From Podarcis cretensis (lineage: Eukaryota), in NCBI GenBank assembly GCA_951804945.1, contig OX638154.1:18910001-18974000 (forward strand): a DNA stretch of 64,000 nt, in the 5' to 3' direction. Position numbers and translations under genes: made by a program. Positions within the stretch are counted from its first letter, which is position 1. Each line of letters opens with the position of its first letter. The notes beneath the pieces are model-generated. The model was not told the DNA's origin, did not search any database, and saw nothing but the letters and a program-made list of their open reading frames with translations. Below, piece after piece: positions 10,241 to 53,220 of the stretch.

Positions 10241-10888
10241 GCGTCCTTTTGAGGATCCCCAGTGACATGGCAGGGCGAAATGTCTTTGCCCTGTGCATCC
10301 CTTTGATGATTGCCAGGGTGCCTTCCCGGAAGGTGTTTTGGCGATCTCTGCCAGGAACATGGCAGGGCGAAGCATCTTCGCCCTGGTGCATCCTCTGCAA
10401 TAGACGCAGCAGGGCCAAACGTCTTTGCCCTGCTACATCCCTTTCACAAAGGTAAGGTGGCTGGCGGTGTGTGGAGAGATGGCAGGCCGAGTTAACCTGG
10501 CTGGGTTGGAGGGGTGTCGCATATGTGACATCATGCACGCACAATGCCCCTGCCGCCACCTGTGCAATTCGGCACCTCTGGCAGATGCTCTATCACTGAG
10601 ATATACCATTTCTCTTAATGGCACCACTCACTTAGAAGAGGAAGCTCCAAGGTTTGTGAAATAATAAAAATATTTTTTTTTTGGGGGGGGGACCCTAGGT
10701 GAGTCGGACATCCCAAAGCAGCTTAATGGGGACTGTGCATGCTTAAGGGACACAAAATATTAATATTAATTGGAGAAAATTAAGAACATTCAGGGTTGCA
10801 TCCAACTAAGTCATACTCACTCATGACTAACTTAACGTCATTTGTTTCAATGGGTCTGTTCTGAGCATGGCTTGGTCCGATGCGACTG

Positions 10889-22688: not shown

Positions 22689-23420
22689 TGCAATTCTTAA
22701 TTACTGAGGGATGAGAATAGGACAGGAATTTAATTTTGAAGGTCATGGTTCTCATGGGTACACCTAATCATTTGGATTGTTGTGCACAGACATGTTTTGC
22801 TTCCAAAATGATTGGCATGGCACCACCATGGTTCCAGTATTAGAGGGAATGGTGCATATGCACACACACACACACACACACACACACGTATGTGTACATA
22901 AGCTGGAGGGCAAAGTAATGAGCAATGGACACTTTCCTGCTGCCTAGATGGCTCCAAGGCCTTCATATTTCAGCTTGGAATGAGTTACGCTTCAGTTCTT
23001 TTTAAAGGAATTCAGGGCTATCCACTGGAATCCAATCTGCAGGTGGTATATTGAAAGTTCCAGGGTTGTAGAGTACTTGCACTTGAATATTTGGCCAGTG
23101 ACTTGGAAATAGACATGGGCTGACTCCAGCTCATTCAGCCGAGTTCTCCTTTGTCAGGGACAAGGAGTAAGGCCAGTGCAGCTGAGGCACTGGAGCCAGC
23201 TCCTGATTATTTCCATATAAAAATGCTTTGAGTATAAATTTATTTTTCCTCCTCTCTTTTTTCTTGTCAGCCCTAAATTTAGACTCGTGGAGAAGTTCCT
23301 TTGGCAGGGAGGGGATGGCAACCGTGACAAAATAGACCTTGTTGGTAGTTTTGAAAGTTCCTAGCAAAAAAGAAAGAAAAGAAAGATCTGGTTTCATTCA
23401 TGTCTCTGTTTTGTCCACAG

Positions 23421-23561
23421 CCCAACGCTCTGCTCACGAACTTCCGATGGTCGAGACTCAAGATGTTGACAGTTGCTTAGTATATGGTGGACAACAGATA
23501 ATCCTGACGGGCCAGAATTTTACTGCAGAATCTAAGGTTATATTCACAGAGAAGACACCAG
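23421..23561 (+). CDS. NFATC2: NFATC2 coding exon (IPT domain start, SQRSAHELPMVETQD...GGQQIILTGQNF...EKTP)
   Basis: Acceptor ttgtccacag, donor gtatgc. 141 nt, phase 1-1. SQRSAHELPMVE is typical of NFATC2 among the paralogues. Confidence 0.97.
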
Positions 23562-24594
23562 GTATGCTGTTCGTTGTATTATTTTTCTAATTAGGCTGAT
23601 CAAGGCGAAACATGTCTTATAGGACTGGGTCCTATGAACGGTCATTCAAACAGGGCCAGCATAACCAGAAATGAATTACTTTATTGGAACACAGCAACGC
23701 TTTGATTTCTGACCTGAATCATACCTGACCTCAAAAAACAAAACAAAAATCCTTAGCGTGGACTCATTGTTTTCCCTAGCCAAACATCACACAGGTTCAA
23801 ACAATGGTGGTGACTAATAAGAATACAGCACATTTCATTCACATGCAATTATAAAGCAGTTAAGGCTGACCCTTAAAGCTCTGACTCATTTTGGAGCTAG
23901 TTAGTAATAGCTGCCACCCGCTTTGCAATCTCTCAGGGACCGGCTTCCCCTTCAGAGACGTGCCACAAGCACCTCATGCAATTGGCGCTTTTAACCTTCT
24001 TTTGTCATTATTGTTTAAAGCAGCAGCCAGCCATCCCCGGTTGGCTACATTGTAAGCTGGTTCTGAAACTTGCAAGAAAAAGCCTCCAGGGCTGCACAGG
24101 AGCAGCTGTTTGGTGGTGGTGGTGGGAGTTGAAAGCCTTATTGTGCCTGTGTTCGCCAGTGTGCATGCACAGAAGTGCACACATAATGGAGGCTGCTGGC
24201 TTTCTTGCCTGAATTAGGAGGTCCCTTATAGTATTTGCTTAAGGTGGCTTTGCAAAGGTCCACAAAGTCTGTTAGCCCACAGTAAAGTAGCCTGCCTGCC
24301 CATGCATACTCATCTTAGCCATTTGTGGAATACTGAGGGTCAGGGAGGGAGAAATGAGGAAGAAACAGCTCTCATCTGCTTCCCTCTGCTTGGTGCCTTG
24401 GAGTTGATTTTTACTCACCACAAGTGACCAGCAGTTTGCAAACATGAATTAATTGAGCTACAAGGCGGAGCTAAGCCTAAGCCTTGCCGCTCAATATGCT
24501 GCAATGCCCTGGTCCTTTATGGAACACCACACTATTAAAGCATTACAGAAAGTTCGGTTTGGTTCAGTTTATTGTGTTTTAGCAAACAGCCATT

Positions 24595-25025
24595 GTTGTT
24601 GTTGTTTAGTCGTTTAGTTGTGTCTGACTCTTTGTGACCCCATGGACCAGAGCACGCCAGGCACTCCTGTCTTCCACTGCCTCCCGCAGTTTGGTCAAAC
24701 TCATGCTGGTAGCTTCGACAACACTGTCCAACCATCTCATCCTCTGTCGTCCCCTTCTCCTTGTGCCCTCAATCTTTCCCAGCATCAGGGTCTTTTCCAG
24801 GGAGTCTTCTTTTCTCACGAGGTGGCCAAAGTATTAGAGCCTCAGCTTCATGATCTGTCCTTCCAGTGACCACTCAGGGCTGATTTCCTTCAGAATGGCT
24901 AGGTTTGATCTTGCAGTCCACGGGACTCTCAAGAGTCTCCTCCAGCACCATAATTCAAAAGCATCAATTCTTTGGTCAGCCCTCTTTATAGTCCAGCTCT
25001 CACTTCCATACATCACTACTGGGGA
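24595..25025 (-). mobile_element. BovB (RTE) LINE, 5'-truncated 3' fragment
   Basis: Frameshifted peptides VVMYGSESWTIK..IDAFELWCWRRLLRVPWTAR and DSLEKTLMLGKIEG.RRRGRQRMRWLD; (CAA)n tail; TSD-like AAACA(G/A)CCATT. Confidence 0.93.
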
Positions 25026-25082
25026 AAACAACCATTACACACATAAAATAATAACAACCACAATACTGCTACTAATTGTGGT

Positions 25083-25480
25083 TTACATTTCTACTCTCTG
25101 ACCTTTAGAAAATAAATCATTTCCTATACCCCCTTTAAGTTTCGTTACATGAATTTGTAGAGCCTTAGCAAGAAAATAGGATGTTCTAAAGGATATATGC
25201 GTCTCTGCATCAGACAACAGAAAGCAGGGCTTTGCAGGAGATGGCCTTCCCTTCTGCGATCTTAACAGTGGGTGGATGTAGTTGTTTCTAAGATAAAGAG
25301 GGCATTCAAGGAGTACATGAGTTGCGACTTCTATTGACATAGAGTTGCAGCCACAAACTCTGTCCTCCTTAGAATCTCCTTTATGTCAGCCCGTCCAATC
25401 TTCTCATGGAAGGATGTTTAGTCTTGCCGGCATATAGGCTACCCTCTTTTTAACATCTACCAGATAGCTTGGCAGGGATT
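25083..25480 (-). mobile_element. Degraded non-LTR retrotransposon C-terminus with CCHC knuckle (RTE-X-like)
   Basis: Minus-strand translation ARLNILP*...DRVCGCNSMSIEVATHVLLECPLY; in-frame stops. Confidence 0.65.
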
Positions 25481-25484
25481 AATA

Positions 25485-25853
25485 CAGTGGTACCTTGGGT
25501 TACATACGCTTCAGGTTACATACACTTCAGGTTACAGACTCCGCTAACCCAGAAATAGTACCTCGGGTTAAGAACTTTGCTTCAGGATGAGAACAGAAAT
25601 CGTGCTCCAGCGGCTAAAGTGGTGCTTCAGGTTAAGAACAGTTTCAGGTTAAGAACAAACCTCCGGAACGAATAACCACTTCAGGTTACAGACTCCGCTA
25701 ACCCAGAAATAGTACCTCGGGTTAAGAACTTTGCTTCAGGATGAGAACAGAAATCGTGCTCCATTAGCTAAAGTGGTGCTTCAGGTTAAGAACAGTTTCA
25801 GGTTAAGAACAAACCTCCGGAACGAATTCAGTACTTAACCCAAGGTACCACTG
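25485..25853 (+). mobile_element. Tigger/TcMar-type MITE with a ~154-bp internal tandem duplication
   Basis: TA-flanked TIRs; block cacttcaggttacagactccgc... occurs at about 25523 and 25677. Confidence 0.9.
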
Positions 25854-25964
25854 TACAATGAAATGAAGGGAGCATACAATTTATTAGATTGACAAGTCTT
25901 GATCTCAGCAGTCCATGATTGCCTCTTGGTACCTCTCAGCCTTTGGAGTGTTAGTTCTTTAAAA

Positions 25965-26328
25965 AGGTAAAGGTAAAGGTACCCCTGCCCGTACGGGCCA
26001 GTCGTGTCCGACTCTAGGGTTGTGCGCCCATCTCACTTAAGAGGCCGGGGGCCAGCGCTGTCCGGAGACACTTCCGTGTCACGTGGCCAGCGTGACGAAG
26101 CTGCTCTGGCGAGCCAGCACCAGCGCAGCACACGGAAACGCCGTTTACCTTCCCGCTATAACGCGGTACCTATTTATCTACTTTCACTTAGGGGTGCTTT
26201 CGAACTGCTAGGTGGGCAGGAGCTGGGACCGAAGGACGGGAGCTCACTCCACCGCGGGGATTTGAACCGCCGACCATGCGATCGGCAAGTCCTAGGCACT
26301 GAGGTTTTACCCACAGCGCCACCCGCGT
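25965..26328 (-). mobile_element. Sauria SINE, second subfamily
   Basis: (AAAGGT)n start; diagnostic cccgtacggg and gtccggagacac motifs shared with the 4098 copy. Confidence 0.92.
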
Positions 26329-27866
26329 TATAGCGGGTATTAGTTTTTTAGCTCTCTCAAAATCCTGCATCACAGAAACAGAAAGATGTGCTGCTGCTGC
26401 TGCTGCTGAAGAAGCAATATACTACAGGCATCAACCATTTCACATGGGGGGTTCCATGCCTAGCCCCCATGTGCATCAGCAGAACGTGTTCCACTCCATT
26501 CCATCTCCATTCCTCCCTCTTCCAGGTCCAAAAGGACCTGCACGTCAGCATCCACACATCAATTGGATGCACCCATAATGATCACCTCCTGTACTCAACG
26601 CCAGTTTTTGGAGAGCAGCAGCAGGATATGGCAGTTGCCTTCAAGCCCTTCTTGTGTGCTTCCTGAAGGCTTCTGACTGATGATCTAGCAGGGCTCTTCT
26701 TATGCTCTTAGGGATGCCTTCTCAAGTGGTGTCCTTCACATCATCCAGAGTAACCATCCTTAAGATGCAGCCAGTCCTTTAGGCACTTCTGTATCTTTGT
26801 GTTCAGAAAAGAATGTGTCATGACCTACCCACCACCCTTCTCCTTCACCAGACTAGATGCATAATATGAGGTGTGTCTTGTTTGCAAACCCCGGCGGCAG
26901 AAGGATGTCCTTTATACTTGGAAGCACCATTTTCAAACATCTTACAATTGGAGGTCCTGCACAGGTGGAGCACTTAATGCTAGTTCATTCAAATACAGGC
27001 AGATTTAGAGCTGTCCATGGCAACTTTTCTTAACAGCACAGTTTGACTTAGCTTGCATGTTTCCTACCAGAATGCTGATGAGCAGCTCTGAGGGCAAGCA
27101 AAGCCACAAGAAACCCACTGTGAGTGGATTGTGCATCCTCCTTCTCGGTGACACTGTCACTGCTAATTTCCTCTTTCAGATGGCTGAGGCTAAGAAAAGA
27201 CCCACATTTTTTATGAAAGAAAGAAGAAAGTATGCCAGCACTTGGAGGGGAAAGCATGCTTGCTTATCTCTCCATTTCACTCTGATGACTCATGGGGACA
27301 TGTACACCCTAGCTGTACTTTCACTCATCACAAGACCAGACCAGCCTCGCTGCTTAGTTAACACTAAGAAAAAAGAAAAAAAGCAGTGATTATGATGTGG
27401 GCAGTGGTCTTATATACTGCAAAGTCCTCTGGGGGATGCTGCATATTTTTGAACGAAGTACATTGCATGCCTTGCAGCCTCGCTCCCCAAGGGTCAGGCC
27501 ACTATTACCAGAGCTAGGCTGCACAATTTACCCTTGATTGTGAATTCAAGTTATAGCCCCTTATAGGATTGTATGTTAATTTATGTGGGAGGAAGTAAAG
27601 AGGTGAATGTGGGAATACTGCAGGTGTGAGGATCAATGCTTGCTGCTTCCCTCTGGTGACCCAGAATATTATTGAGAATAAACAGGGCTGGCATTAGTAC
27701 TCAGCATTGCCAGGCATCCGGGCAGGGCCCCAGCAGCCCAGCAAGAGCTGTGGTGGCATCTGGATCTTGGAACTCCCCATGCTCATTATTCAGAGTGACC
27801 TCATTGCTCTAGGGAAGTGGCAGCCCACAAAGACCTAGAATGGTGTTGCATCAGAGGCATGATGGG

Positions 27867-28194
27867 CAGTGCCGGATTTACGTATAAGCTAAACAAGCTA
27901 TAGCTTAGGGCCTCACTCTCTTGGGGGCCCCAAAAAAATTAAAGGAAAAAAACCTGGATGCACATTTCCAAAATAAAAAAACAAATAAAATAAAACCTAC
28001 ATAAAGCAACAGTGTAGGCTCCTATTTGTTATGTGGAAATGGCTTTAGATACCTATTAGGTCCATAAATTAACATATATATTCAACACACACAAAAACAG
28101 TGAAAATTTGTTGTTGACAAAGGACAGCTGGACATATAAAGGGCCTCATTACCTTCAGTAGCTTAGGGCTTCATCAAACCTAAATCTGGCCCTG
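27867..28194. mobile_element. hAT MITE
   Basis: TIR cagtgccggattta / taaatctggccctg; perfect 8-bp TSD ATGATGGG. Confidence 0.9.
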
Positions 28195-28231
28195 ATGATG
28201 GGCAATCACAATGGTAGGCAGTTTGCAGCTA

Positions 28232-28473
28232 CAGAAGTATCTCAGTTTTTGAACGTCTCCGTTGACGAACATTTTGGTTTTCGAACGCCGTAAACCTGGA
28301 AGTAAATGCTTCAGTTTTCAAACATGCCTCGAAAGTCAAACATGCCACATGGCTTCTGCTGAGTGCAAGATCCTGAGGCCTAGCTGTCAGCTATTGAGTT
28401 TTCGGTTTTCGAAGGTTTCAGAACTCAAACAGTCTTCCGGAACAGATTATGTTCAAAAACAAAGGTACCACTG
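28232..28473. mobile_element. Degenerate TcMar-type MITE
   Basis: TA-cagaagtatctc...aaggtaccactg ends. Confidence 0.6.
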
Positions 28474-30171
28474 TGCTTGGCACATCTGACAGCACTGATC
28501 CTCTGTTGCAAGCAGGTTAGCCAACCAAAAGATCCACCAGTTTAGACACAGCAGAGAACACTGTGCTGGCATGGGTCTCAAACCTGGAGCCAGCCTTGAG
28601 AACTGAGTCTTCTCCTATCTGCACAGTTCTATCCTGGGTTTTGTTTCTTGGACTCACAGGAAAGTGACAGAGCATTGCCAACAGGCTTCTGTGTAAGTGG
28701 ATAGCTTAGTTACAGAAAAGTCATATGGGTAGTGAAAATCTCAAATGAATTCAATCTTCATTCCACACCACATTGATGTTGAGAGTTGATGCAGTGCCCC
28801 TAGCTAAGAGGGTGAGCTTTGCAAGTCCATAGTCAGAATCTCAGCTCAGCCTTAAATTTACTGGGTGACCACAGGCAGTCCATTATCTTTCAATATCAAC
28901 CCTCTTCCTTGTCCTCTGTAATGGGGGATAATGTCTGTCTGTCTTATAGGTTGTGGAGTGGGTGCATGTGCAGTGTTTTGAACATGGGATGGAGAGTTTT
29001 TCCTCATCTCCTTGCCTCTCCCTCTCTACACCCTATGCTCGAATCATTGCTTCAAGCAAAGCTTAAGGCCTGGCCAAGACTGAACTTCCAAACTCAGCCC
29101 CTGTTCCCTCATACCAGACACAGCCCCCAAGCCATGAAAAAGGAAAATCAAAGGCAACAAGCAGTGAATGCCTTTGATGGTGCAGATATGTGTCCATAAG
29201 TCCATAAGTCCATATATGGAACCTCTGGAAGTTTCTCCTAGGTCACTTCTAAATTTATCAGAAAAGTATAATTTCTAAGTTCTGAGTGCCTACTGGAGCA
29301 GAGAGAGCGAGAAAAAGTTAGGTTATCCTTCCACATCATAGGGACCTAAAACCTGAAAGTGCAGTAGGTTCTCAGTTTGCCATATATCAATCTTGCGCCT
29401 TGAAAATAACTGACCCTTGCTGTGTTGACTTGACCACACTACATATTAATGAGATCAGCAAGCAGCTTATAAAAAGACACAGTCATTCTAAGCCTGGCAC
29501 AGGAAATGATGGAAGGAAGTGAACTCTGGGGGACTGGGAGTTTGCAAGCTGGAGAACTAGCAGCCACTGAATAAAGCAATTGTTTTCAGGAGACCTGTGT
29601 GTGCACTGCACATGTAGCATGTTTATTTATGCCCATCTGCAAATGATGCATAGTGTGTTGAGTTGCACATTGCGCACTTAAACAAATGTTGCAATGATTT
29701 AGCTGCTTACCCGCTCCTCCAGGTGGGTGGATGGGAGTAACAATTGCTTCTGGGGAAGTGTAACCCTTTTGGCCATGTCTGGATTCCTAAGTTACTGCAT
29801 CAGCTCTCAAATACCGTGTGCTGTGGAGTCATTTGTCATTTTCGCTAACCGGTGATACTTTAGTTAACTACTGTGTCTATTTATATAGAAGCCAGTTTCC
29901 ATTGTTCAGTCACACTCCTGCTTGACCAAGAAAGAAAACCCAGGATAGGCCTGTATAATAAATAGGATAGCTCTGAATGACTGGGGATAAGTATGGCTTT
30001 CACACCAGCGACACCCCTGGTGCACTCAAATATGTGAATGCTGGCCATTCACTTTTCTATGGAAGAGTAGAGAGCTGCATTTAAAGAGACTGCCCTCTAT
30101 GCCTGTCCTCTTTCCATGTGAACAAGCTGCATGACCCTCAGTGTGGTGCAAGGTTCTGTTCTGAATGCACG

Positions 30172-30217
30172 GGCACGCACGCACGCACGCGCACACACAC
30201 ACACACACACACACACA
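30172..30217. repeat. (GCAC)n(CA)n microsatellite
   Basis: Direct reading. Confidence 0.95.
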
Positions 30218-30347
30218 GATGTGCAGGAACAGTACCTGCCACAATGAGTGGCCTGGCAAGCTGCAGTGTAGTCATAGAATCATAGAATTGCAGAGTTGGA
30301 AGGAATTCAGAAAGTAAAGAACTGTGGATTCTTCATTTGTCTGCTAT

Positions 30348-30586
30348 AGCCAGTGTGGTGTAGTGGTTAAGAGCGGTAGTCTCGTAATCTGGGTTCGCGT
30401 CTCCGCTCCTCCACATGCAGCTGCTGGGTGACCTTGGGCCAGTCACACTTCTCTGAAGTCTCTCAGCCCCACTCACCTCACAGAGTGTTTGTTGTGGGGG
30501 AGGAAGGGAAAGGAGAATGTTAGCTGCTTTGAGACTCCTTCGGGTAGTGATAAAGCAGGATATTAAATCCAAATTCTTCTTCTTCT
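30348..30586 (+). mobile_element. tRNA/CORE SINE (Squam3-like)
   Basis: A box, B-box-like gggttcgcgtc, CORE, (CTT)n tail; matches 7037-7294. Confidence 0.88.
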
Positions 30587-32604
30587 ATATATAAACAATA
30601 TTCACTTAGTCCAGTCCAATATAATAACACCCAATAAAGCCACTTTCTGTGAACAAACTTTATCTTCAAACCTCAATTCCAAATATCATAATTTCTTTTT
30701 CATGCAGGGCTCTTCTTAGGTTCTTACAACAGCTTTCCTTAACTAATATTTTCATATCTGCCCTATTCTTTTGACACTTTAGTTTGTTTTGACTTTGTAT
30801 TTGTAAACTGTTGCGACGCGCTTTGAGATCTCATTGTGGAGGGTGGGAAAGGGTGGGTAATTATTTCAATAATAATAATTGATCATTATGCACAATCTTC
30901 CCTCATCTCTGTCGACATCATGGACCAGTGCAGGGCTTAATGAAATGCTCTGCATGTTCTGGACTACAGGGATTAGAAGTGCTAAAACAGCATTTCTGGT
31001 CCCTATATTTATGACTGTCTGGATCTGCTCCCAGATCCGCTATATTCCAGGGCATGGCAGAACGATGGAGCTCTGGTATGTGGGGGCGAGGAGAATAATA
31101 AGGCAATGGAGGAACATGTAGACTCTCTTTCCAAGGTCAGACATACAATGCTATCATCACCGTGGATAGATATGCAACGCCGTGACACTAGGCAGCATGA
31201 GATTTATTTATTTTTTACCTTTTCGTTGTGGCCTCTAGTGTACTTGGCAGCAAGGAAAAGCTTTCCTGTAATGCAGCCAGCAAGTGTCAGAAGGAGAACG
31301 GGGGAATCCCAGAAAAATATTGCAAAACTTTGGGGGAGGGGGGTCATATTATGAAGACAAACATATTTTTTTAAAAAAAAGAGTGGCCGTGGAAACTGTG
31401 TTGCCATAGCTGAAAGAGAATCACTGAGACAGGGTGGAATCCAGTGTTTTGGAAGGTCTCCCCGCATGACACATGGTTTTGGAATCTTGCAGCTGGTAAG
31501 CAAGCCCTCATTAACAAAGGCAGCTACTACTGGCCTAGATTCCCTGGCTAGCTTTCCACTATGGGGGCGCCTAGAAACAAGCCTGTCTGTGATTACCCAG
31601 CTTTGCAACGTGTTTGCTTAAAGACAATGATTGCTTTTTAATTCATTTGTCTTGGAACGGACAAAAGGCAGAGGCAGGGAGAGGGACCATCTTCTATCAC
31701 CTGTTGAAAGTTAATTGATCACATTAAAAAACCTGGCACAAGGACTGGAATTCCCTCTTCTCCCACTTAGTCATCCCATCCTGGCATGACTCATTTTATT
31801 ACACGGAGGCTCCCAGTGGTTTTATTTTGAGTGGAGCTTTTGTTTCGTGAAGTGTTGGTGCATTTTATTCTTTAGATTTTCGCTAAGTATATTTCCATGA
31901 ATTGGCAAAAAGACATTAGTCAAAAGCAATGCTGGAACTGCATTGGCCCCTGCTGTTTCACTACTCAGCTACTGTTGTTATGTTTCGTGGTGGCTTTAGC
32001 TGAATTTTTCAAACAACTGGCCGAGGGAGGAAGCGCCTTTAAACTCGTTCTCTTGGTACAAAATGTCAGTTTTGGGGCTGGGCTACAACTTGGATGACTA
32101 ACGCCCCTGGCCCTTTCCCAACCAGATCTTGACATACATCTTTGGCCTCCATGAATCATCTTTGACTTCTCTCTCAGCGAAATTAAAGCATTGGCCACAG
32201 CTCAACATCAGACCAGCTTAATTGGCTATAATGGGCCAGTCTCTTGACCTACATGAATCAAACAAGCCCACCTCAGGACCCAGTCCTTCTGAAGAAATAA
32301 AACAGTCTGTTGGCTCACCAACATCAAATTCTTTTAAGCTGCAGTAGCTTCTCTAAAGTTACAGAGTTACTTCTTGTAGGGCAAGAAAGAAGGGGAACAT
32401 AAGAACTGCTATGCTGGATCAAATCAAAATTCTGTGCAATCCAGAACTCCTGCCTTCCACAGCCACCACTCTCGGAAATGTGAGAATCAGAGCATGATGG
32501 ATATGAACAACTCTGTTCATACATCATGGATGGCTAATTGCACCTAACTGGTGACTCTGGGTAGAGATTCACTTCTTTATATGAACTGAAAGATGCAACC
32601 ACAT

Positions 32605-32854
32605 TCTTAGTAGTGGTGCCCACCCTATGGAAGGCCCTCCCATCAGATGTCAATGAAATAAACAACTATCTGACTTTTAGAAGACATCTGAAGGCAGCCC
32701 TGTTCAGGGAAATTTTTAATGTTTGATGTTTTATTGCTTCTTCTTCTTCTTCTTCTTCTTCTTCTTCTTCTTCTTCTTCTTCTTCTTGTTGTTGTTGTTT
32801 CGAGCCGCCCAGAGTGGCTGGGGAAACCCAGCCAGATGGGTGGGGTATAAATAA

Positions 32855-32900
<46 letters not shown>
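32605..32900 (+). mobile_element. L2 LINE 3' end with (CTT)n and (ATT)n microsatellites
   Basis: ccctatggaaggccctccc...gagccgcccagagtggctggggaaacccagccagatggg...tataaataaa(tta)n. Confidence 0.75.
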
Positions 32901-32901
<1 letters not shown>

Positions 32902-35114
32902 CCAGCCTGTTCAGTGGGGCCTGGATAAGGCTTGCAATGAAGGCGAACGTCAGAATGAACTGTGCACCCGAGGGACTGATTTTGTATAAGGCTCATAAGA
33001 AAGTTGCCTTGCACTGAGTCAGACCATTAGGTCAGACCAAATTCTGTAATTCCTGCTGATGTGACTCAGAGGAATTTCATCAGCTGCAGTTGACATTTCT
33101 CCCTCAAAGATGACCGAAGTCTTGCTCACACTTTGTGGTACCACGCTGTCGCCCTGATCCTAAACCCCCATATAGTTTCACAGGTATTTGTGTGTGTGGA
33201 ATTGTGTGTCCAAAATTACCCAGGTTTCACTGTGGAAATGCCTTCAAGTTGTGGAGCAAAAGTACTGATGCATTTGGAGAGTAGCTAAGGTATGTTTCTA
33301 GATGAGTTAAGGCCAGCTCTGAAATCTGGTGGCAAAACAGCTGGTCCGCCCTTCCCCATCTCTACTACTGCTCTGCAAAATACTTCATAGTCTGTTACTG
33401 TTACCTTTGCAAAAGCTATGTTCACCATTACTCCCATTTCATGGATGAGGAACTGAGGCCAAGAAGATGGGCCTCAAGCCAGTTTAACTAAACACCAGTT
33501 GGGAGCCTTGCCCCAGTGGCTTCTGTGAGAGGTGGATTGTACCCATAGCAAATTTTGGTCCAGGGCCATAAAGGAAGACTCTGACAGAGGTGGGACTTCG
33601 ATCCAGATTGGTCTCCCTCATTGAGGCTCCGATTTGTATTGTTTGGAGCAGATGGGCTATTGGAAGCTGCAAGCAGACAGCTCCTCCACAATGCGTTCAG
33701 TAAACGTTACTTACTTTGGACATTTCATTTGACAGCCTGTCAAGTCTCTGCTGTGAAAACCTCAGAGTGAGCTTGTGAGAAATGCAACGAGAATTTCCCA
33801 AACCTCTCAGTCCATCTCTCATGCCAGCTCAGCTAAGCTGCGGCAGAACCTACGTTTTTACTGCCATTTCACAAACCCGTAGTAATGAGTAAGGGACCGT
33901 GAGCAATGTGTACAGGCTCGGCGGACCCTTTATTTGGCTAATTAAGCCAAACAACTCTGAGGGTACTGTAGCAGATCAAGCAGGATTTACCTAATGCAGA
34001 CTGACATCTTGACTTCCCCCAGAGTTTGGCACAAAACTTGTGGTCCGATCACAGCTCGGGATAGACGGGATAGAATTACACTTTTTCTTAAAAACTCCTT
34101 TCTTTCTGTAGAGAGTTGCTGACACCATCAGATCTGGTGCTGGAGCTTAATTTCATATTAAGTCTCCCAGTGCCAAAAGACGTTGCTATACTGTAGTATG
34201 GAGTTAGAAGTGTTGCCCAACAAAGGCTGGCTTGACGTGTACTTAGTGTGCCACAGTCTGATTTTTTGGGTAGGTATAATGGTTCTCACCACACTTACAA
34301 GTGTGCCTTGTGTGTTCCAAGTATATATTCCAGTAATGAACATCTGAAAGACAGACATGAGCCCCATGCATACCAAAACCCAGGGGCTTTTAGGGCATAT
34401 CCATACCACAAACCTACAATGGGTTTAGAACACATTCGTCCACCAGTTATATCTATATTCTACTTTTTAGCTAAGATTTGTTCTTAAGAGTGGCTTGCAA
34501 TTAAAATCCACACAAAGGACACAATCAAAACATTTCTACATAATTCATAAGATCCAAAATAAAGATACAAAAAATCAGCAATGGTAACCCTCTAAACAAT
34601 ACCCAAGCCCAAGAGTCTGTTCAGCAGCTTCAGCTTTTGTAGTTGGAGTCAGTCTGGGTTCTGCCAGGTGGGGAAAGGCCTGCAAGTGAGGGAGAAGTTC
34701 TACTAGGATTTATAGCTAAGGTGAATATATCATTGTTATATTGGCTGTCATATAGTGGTACTGATTTTTCTGTTAGCCAATTTGGGTTTCCTTTTGGGAA
34801 AGAAAAGCAGGTTATACATGGAACGAAAGGTCCCAGCCCACACAAGCATCCCATTTGCTTATTTTATACCAGTCTGATGTCATTTGTTTATTTCAACTTT
34901 TTGTACCCAAATTTTCCCCCAGTCCCTCAGGGTGGCTCGCATCACCACTTAAATTTACAACAGTTACAACATCCCACTTTCTACATGCAGTAGAACCAAG
35001 CAAACTAATTAGTCAGCCATATACCTTGAAACAAAATCTGAACGGCAGCAAAATAAGAACCAAAGAACAGGAGTTTCTAGACAAACCTCTTTGGAGGAAA
35101 GGGCACAAGGAATT

Positions 35115-35280
35115 GCCTTATACTAAGTCAGGCCACTGATCTGCGCAGCTCAGTACTGTTTGTACTGACAGTAGTTCTCTGGGGTTTCAGAGGTAGAATC
35201 TTTCCTGGAAATGCTTGGGACTGAACCCAGCACCTTCTGCATGCAAAGCAGATGCTGTACCACTGAGCTGTGGCCCTTCC
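35115..35280 (-). mobile_element. tRNA-Ala-headed SINE with CR1-type tail
   Basis: Reverse complement ggccacagctcagtggtacagcatctgctttgcatgcagaaggt...ggttcagtccc resembles tRNA-Ala(TGC). Confidence 0.7.
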
Positions 35281-35312
35281 CCAAAGGGGAACTACAGAAA
35301 GGGGTTCTTAAT

Positions 35313-36050
35313 AATATTAATAATAATAAATTTTTATTTATATCCCGCCCTCCCCAGCCGAAGCCGGGCTCAGAGCGGCTAGCAACATTAAAATGATACA
35401 ACATTCTAAAATCATTTCATTATAAAATCAATTCAGATCAGATTAATGGCAACCATTGGGCTAGAGTTCTGTAAGGATTGCCAAAGGAGGGGGTCAGGCT
35501 GTGCCCTGACCAAAGGCTTGGTGGAACAGCTCTGTCTTGCAGGCCCCGCAGAAAGATGGCAAGTCCGGCAGGGCCCTAGTCTCTTGTGACAGAGCGTTCC
35601 ACCAGATTGGAGCCACAGCCGAAAAAGCCCTGGCTCTGGTTGAGGCCAGCCTAACCTCTCTGTGACTCGGGATCACCAAGATGTTTTTGTTTGAAGACAG
35701 TAAAGTCCTCTGTGGGACATACCAGGAGAGGCGGTCCCGTAGGTACGAGTGTCCTGATCCTGTACCCCACCGGGAACCAGTGTAGCTGGTATAGCATCAG
35801 GTGAATGCGAACCCACAGCGAGGACCCTGTAAGGAGTCTCGCCGCGGCATTCTGCACCCGCTGGAGTTTCTGGGTCAGTCTCAAGGGCAGCCCCACGTAG
35901 AGCGAGTTACAATAATCCAGTCTGGAGGTGACCGTCGCGTGGATCACAGTGGCTAGGTCAGGGCGAGAGAGGTAAGGAGCCAACTGCTTAGTTTGGCAGA
36001 GATGAAAAAATGCCGCCTTTGTTATAGCTGCAGTCTGCACCTCCATGGAA
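35313..36050 (-). mobile_element. L2 LINE 3' fragment
   Basis: ORF 35651-36091 AAFFHL...VIHATVTSRLDYCNSLYVGLP..LQRVQNAAARLL...LHWFPV is typical L2 ORF2; 3' stem-loop and A/T tail near 35313-35380. Confidence 0.92.
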
Positions 36051-36278
36051 AGGAGCCTCTTCTCCTTTGTATTAACAATTGGTGTTCTCATAGCTACTCC
36101 CCACCCCCAAGAATCCTAGCAATTGCATTGTGATGAGAGTGCTGAGAATTCTGTTAGAGGTTACTTGCCTCCGTCCTTACAGAGTTACAGTTCCCTGGGA
36201 AGAAGGAACGGCTCTTAAACCAATTTGTCTATTATGTGCAAGTCAGCCTTAGGTTTTGTAACAGATAAATCCTAGCTA

Positions 36279-37095
36279 CCGTATTTTTCGCCCTATAGGA
36301 CGCACTTTTTCCCCTCCAAAAATGAAGGGGAAATGCGTGTGCGTCCTATGGGGCGAATGCAGGCTTTTGCTGACGCCTGGAGAGCGAGAGGGGTCGGTGC
36401 GCACCGACCCCTCTCGCTCTCCAGGCTTCAGGAGAGCCGCAGCGCCAGTCCCACAAGGGCGGGGGACAGCGGGGAGGCGGAACGCCGCCCTCCCGCTGTC
36501 TCCCAATGTGGTTTGGAGGCTGACGGCGGGGAGACGCGTGCTTCTCCCGGCCGCCAGCCCCGCAAGCTCTGGGGACAGCTGGGAGGCACAGCGCGTCCTC
36601 CCGCTGTCCCCGGACCTGATCTGCAGGCGGGCGGCGGGGAGAAGAGCGCTTCTCCCCGCTGCCTGCTCCGCAAGCTCTGGGGACAGCTGGGAGGCACAGC
36701 GCGTCCTCCCGCTGTCCCCGGACCTGATCTGCAGGCGGGCGGCGGGGAGAAGAGCGCTTCTCCCCGCTGCCTGCTCCGCAAGCTCCGGGGACAGCTGGGA
36801 GGCGCAGCGTGTCCTTCCGCTGTCCCCGGACCTGATCTGCAGGCGGGCGGCGGGGAGAAGAGCGCTTCTCCCTGCTGCCTGCCCCGCAAGCGCCTGGGAT
36901 AGTTGGGAGGCGCAGCGCGTCCTCCCTCTGTCCCCGGACCTGGTCTGCAGGCGGGCGGCGGGGAGAGGAGCGCTTCTCCCCGCTGCCGGCCCCACAAGTG
37001 CCTGGGGGGGAAATAAAAATTTTTTCCTTTGTTTCCCCCCCAAAAAACTTGGTGCGTCCTATGGGCCGGTGCGTCCTATGGGGCGAAAAATAGGG
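36279..37095 (+). mobile_element. TcMar-type MITE carrying a GC-rich tandem array
   Basis: TA-ccgtatttttcgccctataggacgcac...gtgcgtcctatggggcgaaaaataggg-TA. Confidence 0.9.
36452..36992. repeat. Five tandem ~108-bp units, each with two hairpins
   Basis: Unit starts at 36452, 36561, 36669, 36777 and 36885; the inner units are near-identical. Confidence 0.92.
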
Positions 37096-37271
37096 TACTT
37101 TGTCGATGATGTATTATATCAGCAAAAATTGCTTTGCAAGAATATGTTAGGGAGAATTGCTTACCAAAACGTGTGTATTAGGAGAAATTGAATTTTCACG
37201 AGGACTTTCTTAAAAAACCATTCCACAAACTGATTCGGAAGCGTGGAGACTGCCTTGGAATGGGTTTAGAT

Positions 37272-37403
37272 CAGTGTTTCCCATACTTGGGTCTCCAGCT
37301 GTTTTTGAACTACTCTTCCCATCATCCGTGACCACTGGTCCTGCTAGCTAGGGATGATGAGAGTTGCAGTCCCCATCTGGAGACCCATGTTTTGGAAACA
37401 CCG
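37272..37403. mobile_element. Fold-back hAT MITE
   Basis: cagtgtttccc...ggaaacaccg inverted ends; the internal catcatcc...ggatgatg core is shared with 17811. Confidence 0.7.
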
Positions 37404-39530
37404 GTCTAAGTAAACCATGTCGTCCAAGAATGCCTACAGCTATCTCACTGTGACCCTCTCTACCACCTTCCTTAGGAAGGAGACGCCTGCAGTTGGTCAG
37501 TACTTAGTCCAAACAAAAGGGCCCAGGGCCAGTTTCTTTAGGAGTGACCATATCACCACCTCTTCCAAGGGGACAGGGGCCACGTTCTTATGCAGTGAAG
37601 CATTGCCCGTGCTCTAGAAACAACCAGTCAGACCCCCTCTGTTGATAAGCCAAGAGTGACAGGCATCAAGAGAGCACATGGTCAGGTGTATAGCCACAAG
37701 CCCTTTGTCCACATCATCAGGCTGCAGAAACTGATTCCACAGCACAGTCACAGACTGTGGTACTGGGTACTTCGGTTATAGCTGCAAAAACTACAAGTAA
37801 AGCTGAGAGTTTTACAGAAAAGGAAACAGAAGAAACCAAGCTGGGGAATGTAGGAAAGTCCTGATCAGTGACACCCAAAGGATAACTCTTTAGGCTCCTT
37901 TCACATAGATTTCAAATGTGGGTGAGTTTGTAGTAAGGGTGCAAAGCCTCATCCCATTGCCCAGAGAAACTTTGTGTTCAGCAAATTTGTATCCCACCTT
38001 AAACAGAGGTTGCTAAGTGGCTCACATGACAATATAATAATCTGAATAATCTGAAACAGGCAGCTGCCTATTAGCAATGCCAGAATTTTAAACCACTGCA
38101 TAAAACTGTTCTTTAAAAAATCACCCCATTTCCTTCCAAGCAGCAGTTTAGTAGTAGCCAGAAGAAAAAAATGTAACACCACATTTTAGCAACAACAGAA
38201 ACAGAATTTGCTTCTTAAATTCATAGGTCCCAATTCATATAATCCTTTAAATGTCAAAAGGTTAAATGGGGCCTGGAAGTTAATTGAATAAATAACATAA
38301 GACACATTTTTTTTTAAAAAAATGTAATAAACAATATCTGAAATATTAAGCACTAAATTCACACCTATTTCACTTTCCCCTGCCTAGCAGCTGCTGCTTC
38401 ACAACAAACAATAGGTGACAGGGTGGCCATTTTGCTCTCTCTCCCAGCAAAACAACACTGATTTCTTAAATTTATTCTAGCCTCGTCTATTTTGCCATAA
38501 ACTCACAGCAGTGCTAATATTCAGAGATGTTAAGGGAAAAGCAAATATTGACTATCTAAAATTAGGACTTGTACACTCAAGATTATAAAAGCAAAGCAGC
38601 AAGCCAGATGGAACATTGTATTTAAGCAGAAAGGTCAGTACAATTGCTGTGGGGTGTTTACTTTTTATATGAGGGTACCATATTTGAAGAAGCAGATTTG
38701 TCCCAGGCAACAAATTTGCTAGGGAAACATTTGCCGGCTGCATTCATTGATGCATCCGTGTAGAATTATCTGCCATTATCATTAGAAGCTCGTACCATAA
38801 ATCAATGAAAATATCATCAATTAAGGGCTGTGTGTGTCATTCCATAAACCAATGAAAACCTCGTCCATTGTGTATGTGTGTGGGGGGAGTGTCATTTCAC
38901 CTATCTTGATCATACACCTCCTGTGGACTTTGGGGTTAATCTAAACGTCATCTGGTTATGCTCAACATTTTTGATTCACAAGGTTTTATTAGTGCCATCC
39001 CAGGGGCTTGGTCACTAAATGAAATCTAATGTTTCTGTGGCTTTAGAATGATTCACTGGTCTCTTGAGAACTGAATCTGATTTTGCAGGCGGTGCCTGGT
39101 TGGTGTTAGATCTGTGCTTGTGACTACGTTTGTAAGGCTGTGTTCACATTCTGCAGACTAAAGTTGCAACGAGGTGGTAAATTTATTTGCAAGGTTTAAA
39201 ACACACAGAGGGAGTAGTATTTAAAAACTGAATCTTCTGCCTGTAGCCTGAAGTGGTTCCATCCAGTCTCATTTCAGGATTATATCACGTTATTGTAGGG
39301 CATGTGTCATTCAGGACAACTCCTTCCCAGAATACCACTTCTCCCTCTTCCTTCCAACTACTCCTCATGCTTTTCTGTAAAGCATGTGGGATAATCACCT
39401 CTTAGTTCCCCATCTCCAATTAAAATGCAGCAGCATTTGGTTGCCGTTCCTTTTTTTTTTACCCTTGCTTCGGCTATCTTGGGCACTGTTGAAATGTAGA
39501 ATGCAAACTCCTTGGGGGCAGAGACCTGTC

Positions 39531-39532
<2 letters not shown>

Positions 39533-39566
<34 letters not shown>
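39533..39566. repeat. (CA)n microsatellite
   Basis: Direct reading. Confidence 0.97.
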
Positions 39567-39568
<2 letters not shown>

Positions 39569-40794
39569 GTTCATGTTTACTATGTGAAACCTTGTCCATA
39601 GGTGCATTATAAAGCAATAATAATTGTCACATGCAGAAGGAGAATAAATTATGCAAAGCAAGTAAGTGCAAGCAAACGTTGCAGAATTTTCAGCACATGG
39701 GTTGCAGAATTCAGCTACAAGTAATGTCGGCACAGAGTTATGCTATTATCGCCATCATCATCCTGGGTTTAAATGTCTGCCCGATGTTTAGTCTGTTGTG
39801 TTGCTGTCTAGGTCACCTTGACTTAGCTGAATGTGTGCGGCAACACTGTAATTAACCTGTTTCAAAAGCTAACTGTTCACTTGGGATGAGCAGCTGCTGT
39901 GCTTGCCCTGGGTGGTTTGGTAGCAATGCAGCAAAACATTATTAAAATTTGGAAACCTTACATACTGGCTGACTTCAGAAACAATGGAGTACTTTGTGCC
40001 TGCGGGGAACCCCCTGTTAGGAAGGGCCGGGGTGTAAACTGCAGTCACAACGGGGGTAGTCCCAGAGGTCCTTCTGACTCATACACATCTGAGTCATCAC
40101 TCTTCTGCCTCCCCCTTCCCTCCCTTCTCCACCAATCCCAAGGGGCAATGATTATACTCCAGGCTTTCAACAATACTGAAATGACTTGCATGTTTCTTCT
40201 TTTGAATTGGTCGTTCCGGCTCATCAAACTAGACCTGTTTTCCGTACCACTCTCTAGAAAACACCCATACTGATTTCATGTTATCCAGAGTCAGCCCTGA
40301 AACCTTTTGCCAGCTTGACTCAGAGAGGATCCCCTCAGTTCCATAAATACCTTTGTGACACCTGTCAGGTGCTGCTTGCCTCCTAAGCTATCCTGCAGGG
40401 ACTGGAGAAATTGCAGGTACTTGACGTCATCCCACAGAGCAACAATTAAAGTTACAGAAGTATCAGCTAATGAGTCCATCCTGTCAAAGCCATTCCCACC
40501 CCCCAAAGCGGTGCACTGCAACACTGTCTCCCTGTGGCTCTCTTGCCTCTCCCTGCTTCAGGGCAAACTCCTGCCTCACTATTTTCTTTCTCCAAATTCT
40601 TAGAAACAGCAGAGGTGGTAGTAAAGTTGTATCTGGGCTGCACCGCTTCAGAACTGCAGGTGAATGTCTGCATGAATGCTCACGCACACAAATAATTATT
40701 TGCCCATAGAAAATTAGCGTAAATAGGGAGGCGGCCAGGCGGCCAGGCTGAACTTTTCCTCCCAGGTGCCTTTTTTAAAAAAAATAGGGAATTT

Positions 40795-41332
40795 TGTCTC
40801 GTATGGTCAGGCAATGTCCCATCTGCAGCCTGAAGTGATTCAGTGCAGAAACGAATTAATTGTTTCTGGCACAGCCTTTTTTGAAGCAAGTTTCTAATCT
40901 GGGAATAGAAACCTGTTTCTGAGAACTAGCTCCTCGTTGTCGCGGTTGAGAAGTAAGCGTGCATAACTATGGATGCTTATAGATCCACGTCTGCCAGATT
41001 CCATCTCAGATACTGAAGTTCCGCTTCACCAGATGAAGATAAATTTACTAGTGCTGTGATGCAAGCACTGACCTCATCAGAGGCGAGTCTTTTACTCTGA
41101 CGGAGCAGGAGGCGTTCTGGTTGTACTGGGGCTTCTGTGATGGGGTCCTCCAAGCCAGAGGACATCAATGTGACATCCTCAGGCCGGAGGGACACTGGTG
41201 CCACAGGCTCTTCTGACCGATGTCTTTCTGAAGTTGGCCCTTCATGCACTTCCGCTTCTGGCGCATGAGTTCTCAATCTGATGCCCTGAAGGAGGAAGAA
41301 CAGTGCTTTCTCTACCCACTATGGTCCTAACA
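40795..41332 (-). mobile_element. Probable LTR with U3 ORF, preceded by a PPT-like tract
   Basis: Minus strand: GGGAGAGGGGGT|TGTTAGG...CTATAAG (TATA-like)...TTCAAAAAAG (decayed PAS?)...GAGACA. No TSD seen. Confidence 0.55.
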
Positions 41333-43098
41333 ACCCCCTCTCCCAGCACCCATTAGGCCTAGAAGGCAATCTCCCATAGCCACTGATGGAGGCCTACCTT
41401 TCAGCTTGAACAGTCACCACAGAAAAGACAGTCTTCATTGGAACAGCGGCAGAGATGGAAAGGACTAACCCCACATATCATGCGCTGCAGTCCTGGCAAA
41501 TACCAGCCTATCCCTGTGGTAGCTATTCATAGTTTATTTTTTTTAAAATCACACAACTGTGGCACATCAGGAGACATGTTTAGCATCCCATCTCGTTTGG
41601 CCCTTAGTCTCTTGTATAAACATATAATTTCCAGAATTTGAGAATCAGCACAGCCTGACAGAAAATGCTAGACTTGGACCTAGAAGTTGCCAGCTGAAAT
41701 CATTGTTTAGCCATAGACTTATCCTAAATCCAGCACTGTGCAGTTTAATTGTGCTGTTTAATATCAATTTGTCCATTTGCCTTAACTTGAAATTTAAATT
41801 ATTTCCAACAGCACACAGTCTTACAGTTCACTGTTCAATGCCTGATGCCTGCTACCTTAAAGCATGGTTGCATTTTATGGTTTTTTCCCTTCCATTGTTA
41901 AGCAACCTACATATGCAATCATGCATTACTTATACGTTGAATATTTCGTCTGGTTGGGCTTTACCTTGTGATCACTGGACACTGCACAACTGTAAAAACC
42001 AAAGGAAACAGAAAGCCAAGCAAACCAGGACTGGTTTTGCAGTTTTATTTTTTTGCCTTTGGACAGTCATTTGACATATGCAAAATGGGAAATAATTGAC
42101 CAGGTGGCAGTATCGTTGAGAAGGAACAAAGGCTTTGAATGAGCCACACACTAAGAAGATGAATTGTTTTTTAAAAGTCAAATGGTTTTCTTGGGAGCAT
42201 AAGTAGAATTGGGTAGGTAGGAGGTGATTTTCCATTCCGTTTAGCACTAAGCCAGCTCTTTGCATGAATGTACCTGGGTGCAATCCAGGGAAGTTTAAGC
42301 ATGTTTTAAGTGCCAGTGAAATAGCTGTGTAAGTTGTGAAGACTGCACCTAATATGCTGACGAAGTAGAGAGGAAGGAAAGAACCTGGTGTAGGGTCTTA
42401 AGAGTAACAAGGAAAGGGCTGGAGGAACTAGGAAAGTTTTAGCTCAAGGAAAAGACCAGAGCGTGTGGGAACATAATAGCAATTTGAATATTTGTAAAAG
42501 GGCTGCTCAAAGCAGGATGCTGATCGTGGGTTTTCTTTCTTTCTTTCTTTCTTTCTTTGACACTCCGCTGAGAGTGGACCAAGATATGAATAACTGAAAA
42601 ACTGGTGGGAAAGTCTGTGACTTGGGTAGCAGATCCTCCAGGAAACACTTGTTACTAGAAGCCTTTGAAAAAGCTTGGCAGAAGCAGCGAAACTCCAGCA
42701 AGCACATTTTTGTTGTTATTAATCTCTACTGTTGTTATGGAAATGCTTAGGGTGGCCATTAAACATATTTGCAATCATTTATTTATGAAAACTTTGCTAC
42801 CACTCCAAGTAGTCAAAGGTTTATATTTTCACAGCTGACCCAAAGCCTCGGCCAGTGTTGGTGAGTTGGTAGGGTGGCCAGCCTTATGTATGTTTGTCCG
42901 TTGTATTTTGTGGGGCTTACTTTCAGGTAAATGAGCATAGGACTGCAACCTGAATCTTGACGTGCTGCAGCATTTGAATTCTACCTTTGCCAGGAAGTCA
43001 CTAGGCAAGCTGCTATACTCTCAGGCTTAGCCTTCCACCTGTAATGTAGGGAGATCTCGTTTTGCAAAGAATGACAGCAAGAGAATGCATACAAAGTA

Positions 43099-43324
43099 CA
43101 GTGGTACCTCGGGTTAAGAACTTAATTCGTTCCGGAGGTCTGTTCTTAACCTGAAACTGTTCTTAACCTGAAACACCGCTTTAGCTAATGGGGCCTCCTG
43201 TTGCTGCTGCGCCGCAGGAGCACGATTTCTGTTCTCATCCTGAAGCTAAGTTCTTAACCCGAGGTACTGTTTCTGGGTTAGTGGAGTCTGTAACCTGAAG
43301 CGTATGTAACCCGAGGTACCACTG
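43099..43324 (-). mobile_element. Tigger/TcMar-type MITE
   Basis: TA-cagtggtacctcgggtta...taacccgaggtaccactg-TA. Confidence 0.92.
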
Positions 43325-43406
43325 TACTTTGGACATGTTATGGTGCTGTAGTGGTGAGGAAGAGCATGACCCCCTTTTTTCATGCTTGACTTAATATTTC
43401 TTTCAG

Positions 43407-43462
43407 ATGGGCAACAGATTTGGGAGATGGAAGCCACCGTGGACAAAGATAAGAGCCAACCT
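43407..43462 (+). CDS. NFATC2: NFATC2 coding exon (DGQQIWEMEATVDKDKSQP)
   Basis: Acceptor tttctttcag, donor gtaagt. 56 nt, phase 1 to 0. Confidence 0.96.
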
Positions 43463-44389: not shown

Positions 44390-44516
44390 AATATGCTTTT
44401 CGTGGAGATACCAGAATATCGGAATAAGCACATTCGTTCTCCCATCAAGGTGAATTTCTATGTGATCAATGGAAAACGGAAAAAAAGCCAGCCACAACAT
44501 TTTACCTATCACCCAG
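44390..44516 (+). CDS. NFATC2: NFATC2 coding exon (NMLFVEIPEYRNKHIRSPIKVNFYVINGKRKKSQPQHFTYHP), includes the KRKK NLS
   Basis: Acceptor tcctttcag, donor gtaatt. 127 nt, phase 0 to 1. Confidence 0.97.
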
Positions 44517-44569
44517 GTAATTATTTATGAAAAGGAATGGACTATGGCACAATATTTGGCAAGAAACAC

Positions 44570-44894
44570 NNNNNNNNNNNNNNNNNNNNNNNNNNNNNNN
44601 NNNNNNNNNNNNNNNNNNNNNNNNNNNNNNNNNNNNNNNNNNNNNNNNNNNNNNNNNNNNNNNNNNNNNNNNNNNNNNNNNNNNNNNNNNNNNNNNNNNN
44701 NNNNNNNNNNNNNNNNNNNNNNNNNNNNNNNNNNNNNNNNNNNNNNNNNNNNNNNNNNNNNNNNNNNNNNNNNNNNNNNNNNNNNNNNNNNNNNNNNNNN
44801 NNNNNNNNNNNNNNNNNNNNNNNNNNNNNNNNNNNNNNNNNNNNNNNNNNNNNNNNNNNNNNNNNNNNNNNNNNNNNNNNNNNNNNNNNNNNNN
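44570..44894. other. Assembly gap (325 N)
   Basis: Run of N. Confidence 1.
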
Positions 44895-52429: not shown

Positions 52430-53220
52430 TAGTCATGAACGACTCTGGGGTTGCGGCGCTCATTTCGCTTTACTGGCCAAGGGAGCCAACGTTTGTCCGC
52501 AGACAGCTTCCCTGGGTCATGTGGCCAGTATGACTAAGCCGCTTCTGGCAAACCAGAGCAGCACACGGAAATGCCATTTACCGTATTTTTCGCCCTATAG
52601 GACGCACTTTTTCCCCTCCAAAAATGAAGGGGAAATGTGTGTGCGTCCTATGGGACGAATGCAGGCTTTCGCTGAAGCCTGGAGAGCGAGAGGGGTCGGT
52701 GCGCACCGACCCCTCTCGCTCTGCAGGCTTTGCGGACCTCTCCGCAAGCAGCGGGAGCGCTCCCACTGCTTGCGGAGAGTTGCCTGCATGCCGAAGCCTG
52801 CGCGCGCTGAGCTCAGTGCGTCCAGGCTTCGCGGACCTCTCCGCAAGCAGCGGGAGCCAGCACTGGGCTCCCACGGCTTGCAGAGAGCTGCCTGTTTGGG
52901 GGCTGGGGCTGGGGAAGCTCGGGCCTCCCCCGCCCCAGCCCCACACCTGGGGGGGAAAAATAATTTTTCCCCCTTTATTCCCCCCCAAAAAAACTAGGTG
53001 CGTCTTATGGGACGGTGCGTCCTATAGGGCGAAAAATACGGTACCTTCCCACCGGAGCGGTAACTATTATCTACTTGCACTTTGACGTGCTTTCGAACTG
53101 CTAGGTTGGCAGGAGCTGGGACTGAACAACGGAAGCTCATCCCGTTGTGGGGATTTGAACTGCTGACCGTCCAATCGGCAAGCCCAAGGCTCAGTGGTTT
53201 ATACCACAGCACCACCCACG
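52430..53220 (-). mobile_element. Sauria SINE split by a MITE insertion
   Basis: SINE sequence ...gccattTA | TAccttccc... is continuous across 52581-53041. Confidence 0.9.
52581..53041 (+). mobile_element. TcMar-type MITE (same family as 36279)
   Basis: Perfect 27-bp TIRs, TA TSD, 40-bp perfect palindrome 52683-52722. Confidence 0.93.

Follow-up and report, generated by a model that had tools for sequence, protein, structure and literature searches.

A 1,318-bp element in an NFATC2 intron of Podarcis cretensis, probably a decaying solo LTR with a residual minus-strand reading frame

The stretch of Podarcis cretensis DNA analysed here (the window, 64,000 nucleotides) carries a bounded unit of 1,318 bp at 40015-41332, which is flanked by a 6-bp duplication and is older than the split of three lizard species. 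This TG...CA unit of the solo-LTR type probably derives, as a solo LTR, from an old lizard LTR retroelement of low copy number; it is now decaying and is not assigned to a class. The element is real and ordinary, and larger than first described. It was placed on the minus strand from its reading frame, and its orientation is putative. In the original prediction, an LTR-like element of about 550 bp had been proposed to run from a TG at 41332 to GAGACA at 40795, and to carry a frame of about 100 codons as the spliced last exon of a gene of the retroviral accessory type. The motifs named there are present at their positions, among them TGTTAGG (41332-41326), a pyrimidine tract with AG (41302-41286), and a frame running to a TAA within CTATAAG (40982-40976). 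A terminal repeat and a 6-bp duplication, evidence beyond that given at the time, now back both an LTR-like origin and the boundary at the 5' end; the reading of the present frame as a spliced last exon is unsupported.

The whole window was scanned for TG...CA units having both a terminal repeat and a duplication. The scan returned 38 candidates, a total close to the Markov null expectation, and 40015-41332 ranked first among them; the window-wide null gave 0.15 hits as good per 64 kb. When the TG at 41332 was used as an anchor, 40015 came out best among the 1153 CA ends lying no more than 15 kb away, and its score (inverted repeat 8, duplication 6) was matched by none of 1500 random TG starts. 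The 8-bp terminal inverted repeats are located at 41325-41332 on the minus strand, starting at the TG already named, and at 40015-40022 on the plus strand, an end that had been missed. The two copies of the target-site duplication, ACCCCC on the plus strand, occupy 41333-41338 and 40009-40014. The duplication is exact and lies inside the 4-6 bp range expected of a solo LTR, the duplicated 6-mer being low in complexity and G-rich; the general LTR layout and duplications of 4-6 bp are described in a passage of PMC11359688. The TG at 41332 pairs with the end at 40015, which sets the length of the element at 1,318 bp. The end formerly placed at 40795 gave an inverted repeat of 3 and a duplication of 0, and its GAGACA (40795-40800, minus strand) is internal and no terminus. 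The purine tract at 41344-41333, taken earlier for a PPT, shares 6 of its 12 bases with the first copy of the duplicated target site. An alternative far end at 37640 (repeat 4, duplication 8) was rejected on its lower score and shorter terminal repeat.

Paired LTRs around gag-pol, as a full element would present them, were not encountered: no second LTR, gag-pol or PBS was seen near the element, no paired second LTR was found within the window, and no long direct repeat was found inside or around the element. A primer-binding site is expected to begin TGG; no such start follows either element end, and the 18 nt past 40795 begin AAA. Stop-free frames of at least 62 codons were searched for retroelement domains between 32 and 53 kb, and none was found in 99 of 102 frames, the three low-complexity frames being omitted.

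The window carries part of NFATC2, an immune gene, on the plus strand, and the element is antisense to that gene in one of its introns. The host gene was identified as NFATC2 from the exon at 44390-44530, for which matches were obtained to the Rel dimerisation domain (E 2.8e-10) and to NFATC2 chains in PDB (E 4.7e-24). Further exons, placed by motifs that we take to be those of NFATC2, are located near 5.7, 7.4, 23.4, 43.4 and 46.4 kb. The host intron spans about 23560 to 43407, between the previous exon (near 23420-23560, plus strand, placed by the same presumed motifs) and the downstream exon at 43407-43462 (plus strand). An antisense NFATC2 exon was considered as the origin of the frame and rejected, the exons being found at other positions. 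Directly past an NFATC2 exon there is a 325-base assembly gap (44570-44894).

The element was present in contigs of two related species, coded C and F, at 2-3% divergence, and the insertion predates the split of the window's species from both. The stretch 39700-41700 was present in 20 of the 24 runs listed, from 8 studies and 7 coded species. A single contig of species C spans the whole stretch, and 60 substitutions were counted over its 2901 bases. The element had 27 substitutions in 1318 bases as against 10 in 409 in the left flank, and it changes at a neutral rate. Both copies of the duplication were without a listed change in species C, and one terminal repeat had one substitution, at 40021. 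The contigs of species F cover 40784-42500, and thus at least 40784-41332 of the element; from about 39697 to 40783 there was no cover save for short matches, for which a far-end deletion or a filter effect is possible. No joint across the element, as expected of an orthologous empty site, was seen in any of the four runs compared; the insertion is accordingly attested by the duplication and by no empty site.

Related loci elsewhere were sought by comparing four of the 24 sequencing runs at 80% likeness, three of them DNA-like (window's species, species C and species F); copies diverged beyond 80% likeness would escape this comparison. In the window's species and in species C depth was flat over the two true ends, and in species F it was flat over 41332, so that no other locus in the DNA-like runs of the three species has either end at 80% likeness or above, and the copies with common TG...CA boundaries envisaged earlier did not appear. 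A few old loci do match a core at 41085-41215 (minus strand), from which the EDP...RQSKRL portion of the frame is read; these matches are 43-80 nt long and about 80-96% alike. Among the contigs listed, at least six of species C, at least three of the window's species and at least two of species F matched the core. These loci were in kilobase contigs at single-locus depth, and the same loose ends recurred across species, so that they too are old insertions. When the loose ends listed were compared by eye, one related locus continued for 30 nt without a gap (22/30 alike), and two continued, in loose ends of 30 nt, after length differences of 6 nt and 9 nt. The length differences were thus in frame in both of the clear cases, for which the chance is about 1 in 9. 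In two related loci, also by eye, a TAA within an A/T run follows the KRL motif at a distance of 7-9 codons. Likeness to the related loci fades right after KRL, and the last 1,050 nt are without a known relative. A 40-nt match at 40823-40862 was discarded; by eye it had unlike sequence on both sides in the window's species, and it was near chance by hand estimate. Two related repeats with common ends are located at 36267-37101 and 52569-53047, the first composed of four 108-nt GC-rich units with long open frames on both strands.

The minus-strand frame extends stop to stop over 113 codons (40977-41318), 102 of them after the AG of the acceptor-like site, and its sole in-frame ATG is at 41165. 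Its length is unremarkable: 46 of the 6058 stop-to-stop frames in the window have at least 113 codons, and a frame as long was obtained in 63 of 500 shuffles of the element. The minus strand as a whole is stop-poor (read-through takes fewer stops and shifts than in shuffles, of which 10/300 and 4/300 were as low), and the plus strand is not (275/300 and 290/300). Tiles as low as the minus strand made up 28 of 408 in the window, most of them over the LTR at 9482, GC-rich repeats or an NFATC2 exon. A second minus-strand frame, at 40048-40557, consists of open runs of 88 and 76 codons separated by two close stops; it continues where the first fades, and it had no Pfam match and no usable Atlas match.

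Conservation of the frame, which the original prediction implied, was not borne out, the frame being shifted in both related species. In species C a 1-nt deletion at 41063 shifts it to end at the TAG at 41050, within tandem stops at 41045-41050 (minus strand). In species F, 17 extra bases at 41085 shift it to that same TAG; in addition, the deeper allele of species F has 7 bases missing at 41259, by which the frame ends at 41167, while its shallow allele skips 33 nt in frame. The 17 extra bases are probably the older state, because they resemble one other locus at that place in 14 of 16 positions (by eye); an in-frame loss with a short duplication in species F is a possible alternative that needs more events. 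Three substitutions fell in the frame of species C where 6.4 were expected (P 0.12), and all three change the residue (new residues read by hand). The stop inside CTATAAG (TAA at 40979-40977; motif at 40976-40982, minus strand) was found in one of the three species, that of the window. As CTATAAG is 962 nt from the true end, it is not positioned like the promoter of a short LTR. A stop-poor minus strand and the in-frame-looking indels against related loci are a hint of past coding, and this part of the LTR may at one time have been coding in the parent family. In the host the frame is very probably not a working exon.

Protein relatives of the frame were sought widely. No relative was found in Pfam; a word-index search gave none among 12 candidates of near length and none among 249 longer ones; and no annotated protein matched, Podarcis lilfordi gene models being included in the database. 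The Atlas search had no usable match (best 0.80), and PDB returned a single match at E 0.67. A phmmer search against 1.84 billion representatives, in which X took the place of each stop so that the frame could be read through, gave no matches, and metagenome and viral contigs held no relative, all of these being collections with little lizard sequence. Three Rfam matches were obtained, all far under the gathering score.

The history most consistent with these data begins with a parent element that an integrase would have inserted antisense into the NFATC2 intron, with 6 bp duplicated. Recombination between the two LTRs would then have removed the inside of that element, before the three species parted, and the copy left behind would have drifted neutrally. 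The minus-strand frame would most likely be what is left of a U3 frame carried by the parent family, its present length and stop having presumably arisen from indels after insertion. Such remains are common in crocodilians, whose genomes are credited in part of PMC4299795 with about 340,000 solo LTRs of about 1.5 kb mean length; their class, ERV or Gypsy-like, is not tellable from the LTR. The element resembles these in being a single TG...CA unit within 1.3-1.5 kb with a short duplication and no parent genes; it differs in belonging to a lizard, in its low copy number, in having no clear PAS and in its residual open frame. The LTRs of Ty3/Gypsy elements (Metaviridae) flank gag-pol, with the order RT-RH-INT, and usually have a 4-5 bp duplication. 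A 6-bp duplication would be unusual for Ty3/Gypsy and is yet compatible with it. In its present state this single solo LTR, fixed and decaying, can serve as a marker common to three lizard species.

An unlikely alternative to this solo-LTR reading is that the parent was a complex, MMTV-like element, of which a damaged copy is left, and that its U3 accessory gene was a spliced last exon entered through an acceptor at 41287. The LTR of MMTV is 1.3 kb because its U3 encodes Sag, and its acceptor is just upstream of the frame, according to a section of PMC3026287; the element here, at 1,318 bp, is thus of comparable size and likewise has a frame near the 5' end after an acceptor-like site. The 6-bp duplication is another likeness, as it is called typical of ERV2 in the same part of PMC4299795, where duplication length is also called inconsistent within classes. 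The frame has no in-frame ATG before 41165, the minus strand is stop-poor, and the length differences from related loci look in frame by eye, all of which would suit such a parent. There is, however, no sag-like or other sequence match, the frame is broken in both relatives, and pol, env and PBS are absent. The frame is also about a third of the length of Sag. Members of the ERV2 or Betaretrovirus type would further have a class II pol, a dUTPase in pro and a PBS of the Lys type.

The candidate acceptor (pyrimidine tract and AG, 41286-41302, minus strand) is a further point for an MMTV-like parent. Its tract has 13 pyrimidines in 14 positions, a level met by 13 of the 2108 minus-strand YAG sites, and such a strong tract 46 nt inside the LTR would be a coincidence of about 1%, counted post hoc from 13 sites in 64 kb. 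On both strands, 4 of 25 such sites precede 100 open codons, the other three being in repeats; the pairing of a strong acceptor with an open frame is uncommon, though it was picked post hoc. Against it, an AG 20 nt upstream shortens the AG-free zone; in six likely host acceptors, picked by eye, these zones were 16-59 nt, four of them at least 35. No branch-point motif was found at the site by a simple pattern, which also missed two of the six host acceptors. The site is unchanged in species C, as expected by chance (P 0.70 under neutrality). No copy with a conserved acceptor was found: in the depth table no other locus matched the acceptor region, 41216-41345, at 80% likeness. One run of guessed RNA type covers only 41475-41692, outside the element. 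Moreover, the frame is open right from the LTR edge apart from one TAG, so that read-in from upstream, as in the family at 9482, is as plausible as splicing. A caution comes from the bat betaretrovirus PaERV-betaA, whose U3-overlapping ORF was exposed as the artefact of an indel by comparison of close copies, as related in an excerpt of PMC3621094. The likeness is an orphan U3 frame that has no Pfam or BLAST match and whose extent is set by a small indel; the difference is that PaERV-betaA is a full-length provirus of known class.

It is doubtful that the element represents an undescribed lizard lineage with an MMTV-sized LTR, a 6-bp footprint and an orphan accessory gene that took up much of U3 and was spliced to an LTR-internal acceptor. 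If it did, then, together with the unrelated 9482 family, LTRs that code for protein would be a recurrent design among the retroelements of lacertids, and if full-length relatives had a conserved spliced U3 gene, the LTR-borne accessory gene of the MMTV type would extend to reptiles. No coding LTRs of lacertids were found in a literature search that took in few subscription papers and was made outside Repbase and Dfam.

The neighbouring LTR at 9482-10240 (plus strand) is the stronger case of a coding LTR. It is a clear solo LTR of 759 bp with a terminal repeat of 6 and a duplication of 5. Its AATAAA lies 74 nt short of the end, and its acidic frame of 210 codons is open from the LTR edge, with a stop about 30 nt ahead of its TTTAAA. 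Four relatives of this frame were found among 108 candidates (61-72% identity), with a longer cluster member in addition, and the frame is uninterrupted in three relatives derived from Logan (61-68% identity) and likewise in one Podarcis lilfordi model. Ahead of the LTR edge, two models of Podarcis lilfordi have the adjoining residues in common, and on the upstream side they prove frameshift-compatible in 32 of 40 codons, as against 18-22 in shuffles; they are read, from their sequence, as 3' LTRs with internal sequence attached. In both, an in-frame Met precedes the edge by two codons, so that the family should be translatable without an acceptor inside the LTR, and no pyrimidine-rich acceptor was found in the first 80 nt of the 9482 LTR. 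The two elements are alike in being solo LTRs with a terminal repeat and a duplication in the same gene, and in having an acidic, Ser/Pro-rich frame with a basic patch. The absence of nucleotide similarity between them, noted at the outset, was confirmed (blastn empty; blastp of the proteins, E 2.4). The claim that they share one layout failed: the 9482 LTR is without an acceptor, has AATAAA, and has its stop ahead of TTTAAA, and it differs further in its length, its 5-bp duplication, the frame open in several copies and the Met upstream. With its frame open in several copies, the 9482 family is the better entry to the question of LTR-borne genes. Directly past this LTR, at 10259-10444, are three short imperfect repeats, both direct and inverted.

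It is also possible, and quite unlikely, that the solo LTR is to be read on the plus strand, in the sense of NFATC2, the minus-strand frame and the acceptor being accidental. The ends of the element are symmetric and the length of the frame alone is non-significant, both of which this orientation accommodates. In a motif scan of the plus strand, three sites which we take to be AP-1-like (40075, 40090 and 40316), a presumed CRE-like site at 40422, a TATA-like ATAAATA at 40343 (+329) and ATTAAA at 40445 (+431) were found within 40075-40450, the last two being 880 nt from the end. For the minus strand of 40015-41332 the same scan found neither AATAAA nor ATTAAA, and the decayed PAS-like stretch proposed earlier has no counterpart among these motifs. 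The minus strand does have a TATAA at 40152-40156, 141 nt before its end, a candidate promoter with no PAS after it. Decay may strip an LTR of such signals. A plus-strand LTR would, however, be left with a U5 of about 860 nt; it would not account for a minus strand that is stop-poor where the plus strand is not; and the sole stretch shared with other loci keeps the minus-strand frame (by eye). LTRs in sense orientation that have a PAS are usually purged from introns, which speaks against the plus-strand orientation as well. The two AP-1-like sites at 40075-40096, of the form TGA(C/G)TCA and 15 nt apart, together with the site at 40316 and the CRE-like site at 40422 make up a possible enhancer within the NFATC2 intron.

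Less probable still is an origin other than an LTR, either as a non-autonomous or internally deleted DNA element of the cut-and-paste or integrase type, or as an old repeat fragment (41085-41215) pieced together with chance boundary motifs. Canonical LTR signals are missing near both ends, the element is single-copy at 80% likeness over nine tenths of its length, and its duplication is G-rich in a window that has 38 weaker pairs of repeat and duplication, about the chance rate. Against this origin are the anchored null (0/1500), the start having been chosen in the original prediction without knowledge of the far end, an inverted repeat that stops at 8 bp, and the lack of any transposase match.

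Co-option by the host, with the frame serving an antisense or nested gene as one of its coding exons, is very improbable and, for protein coding across these species, largely refuted: the 102 codons that, in the window's species, stay open behind a good acceptor, and a frame slightly poor in substitutions, are outweighed by frameshifts in both relatives, by substitutions that without exception change the residue, and by the lack of any annotated protein in a database that holds Podarcis lilfordi gene models.
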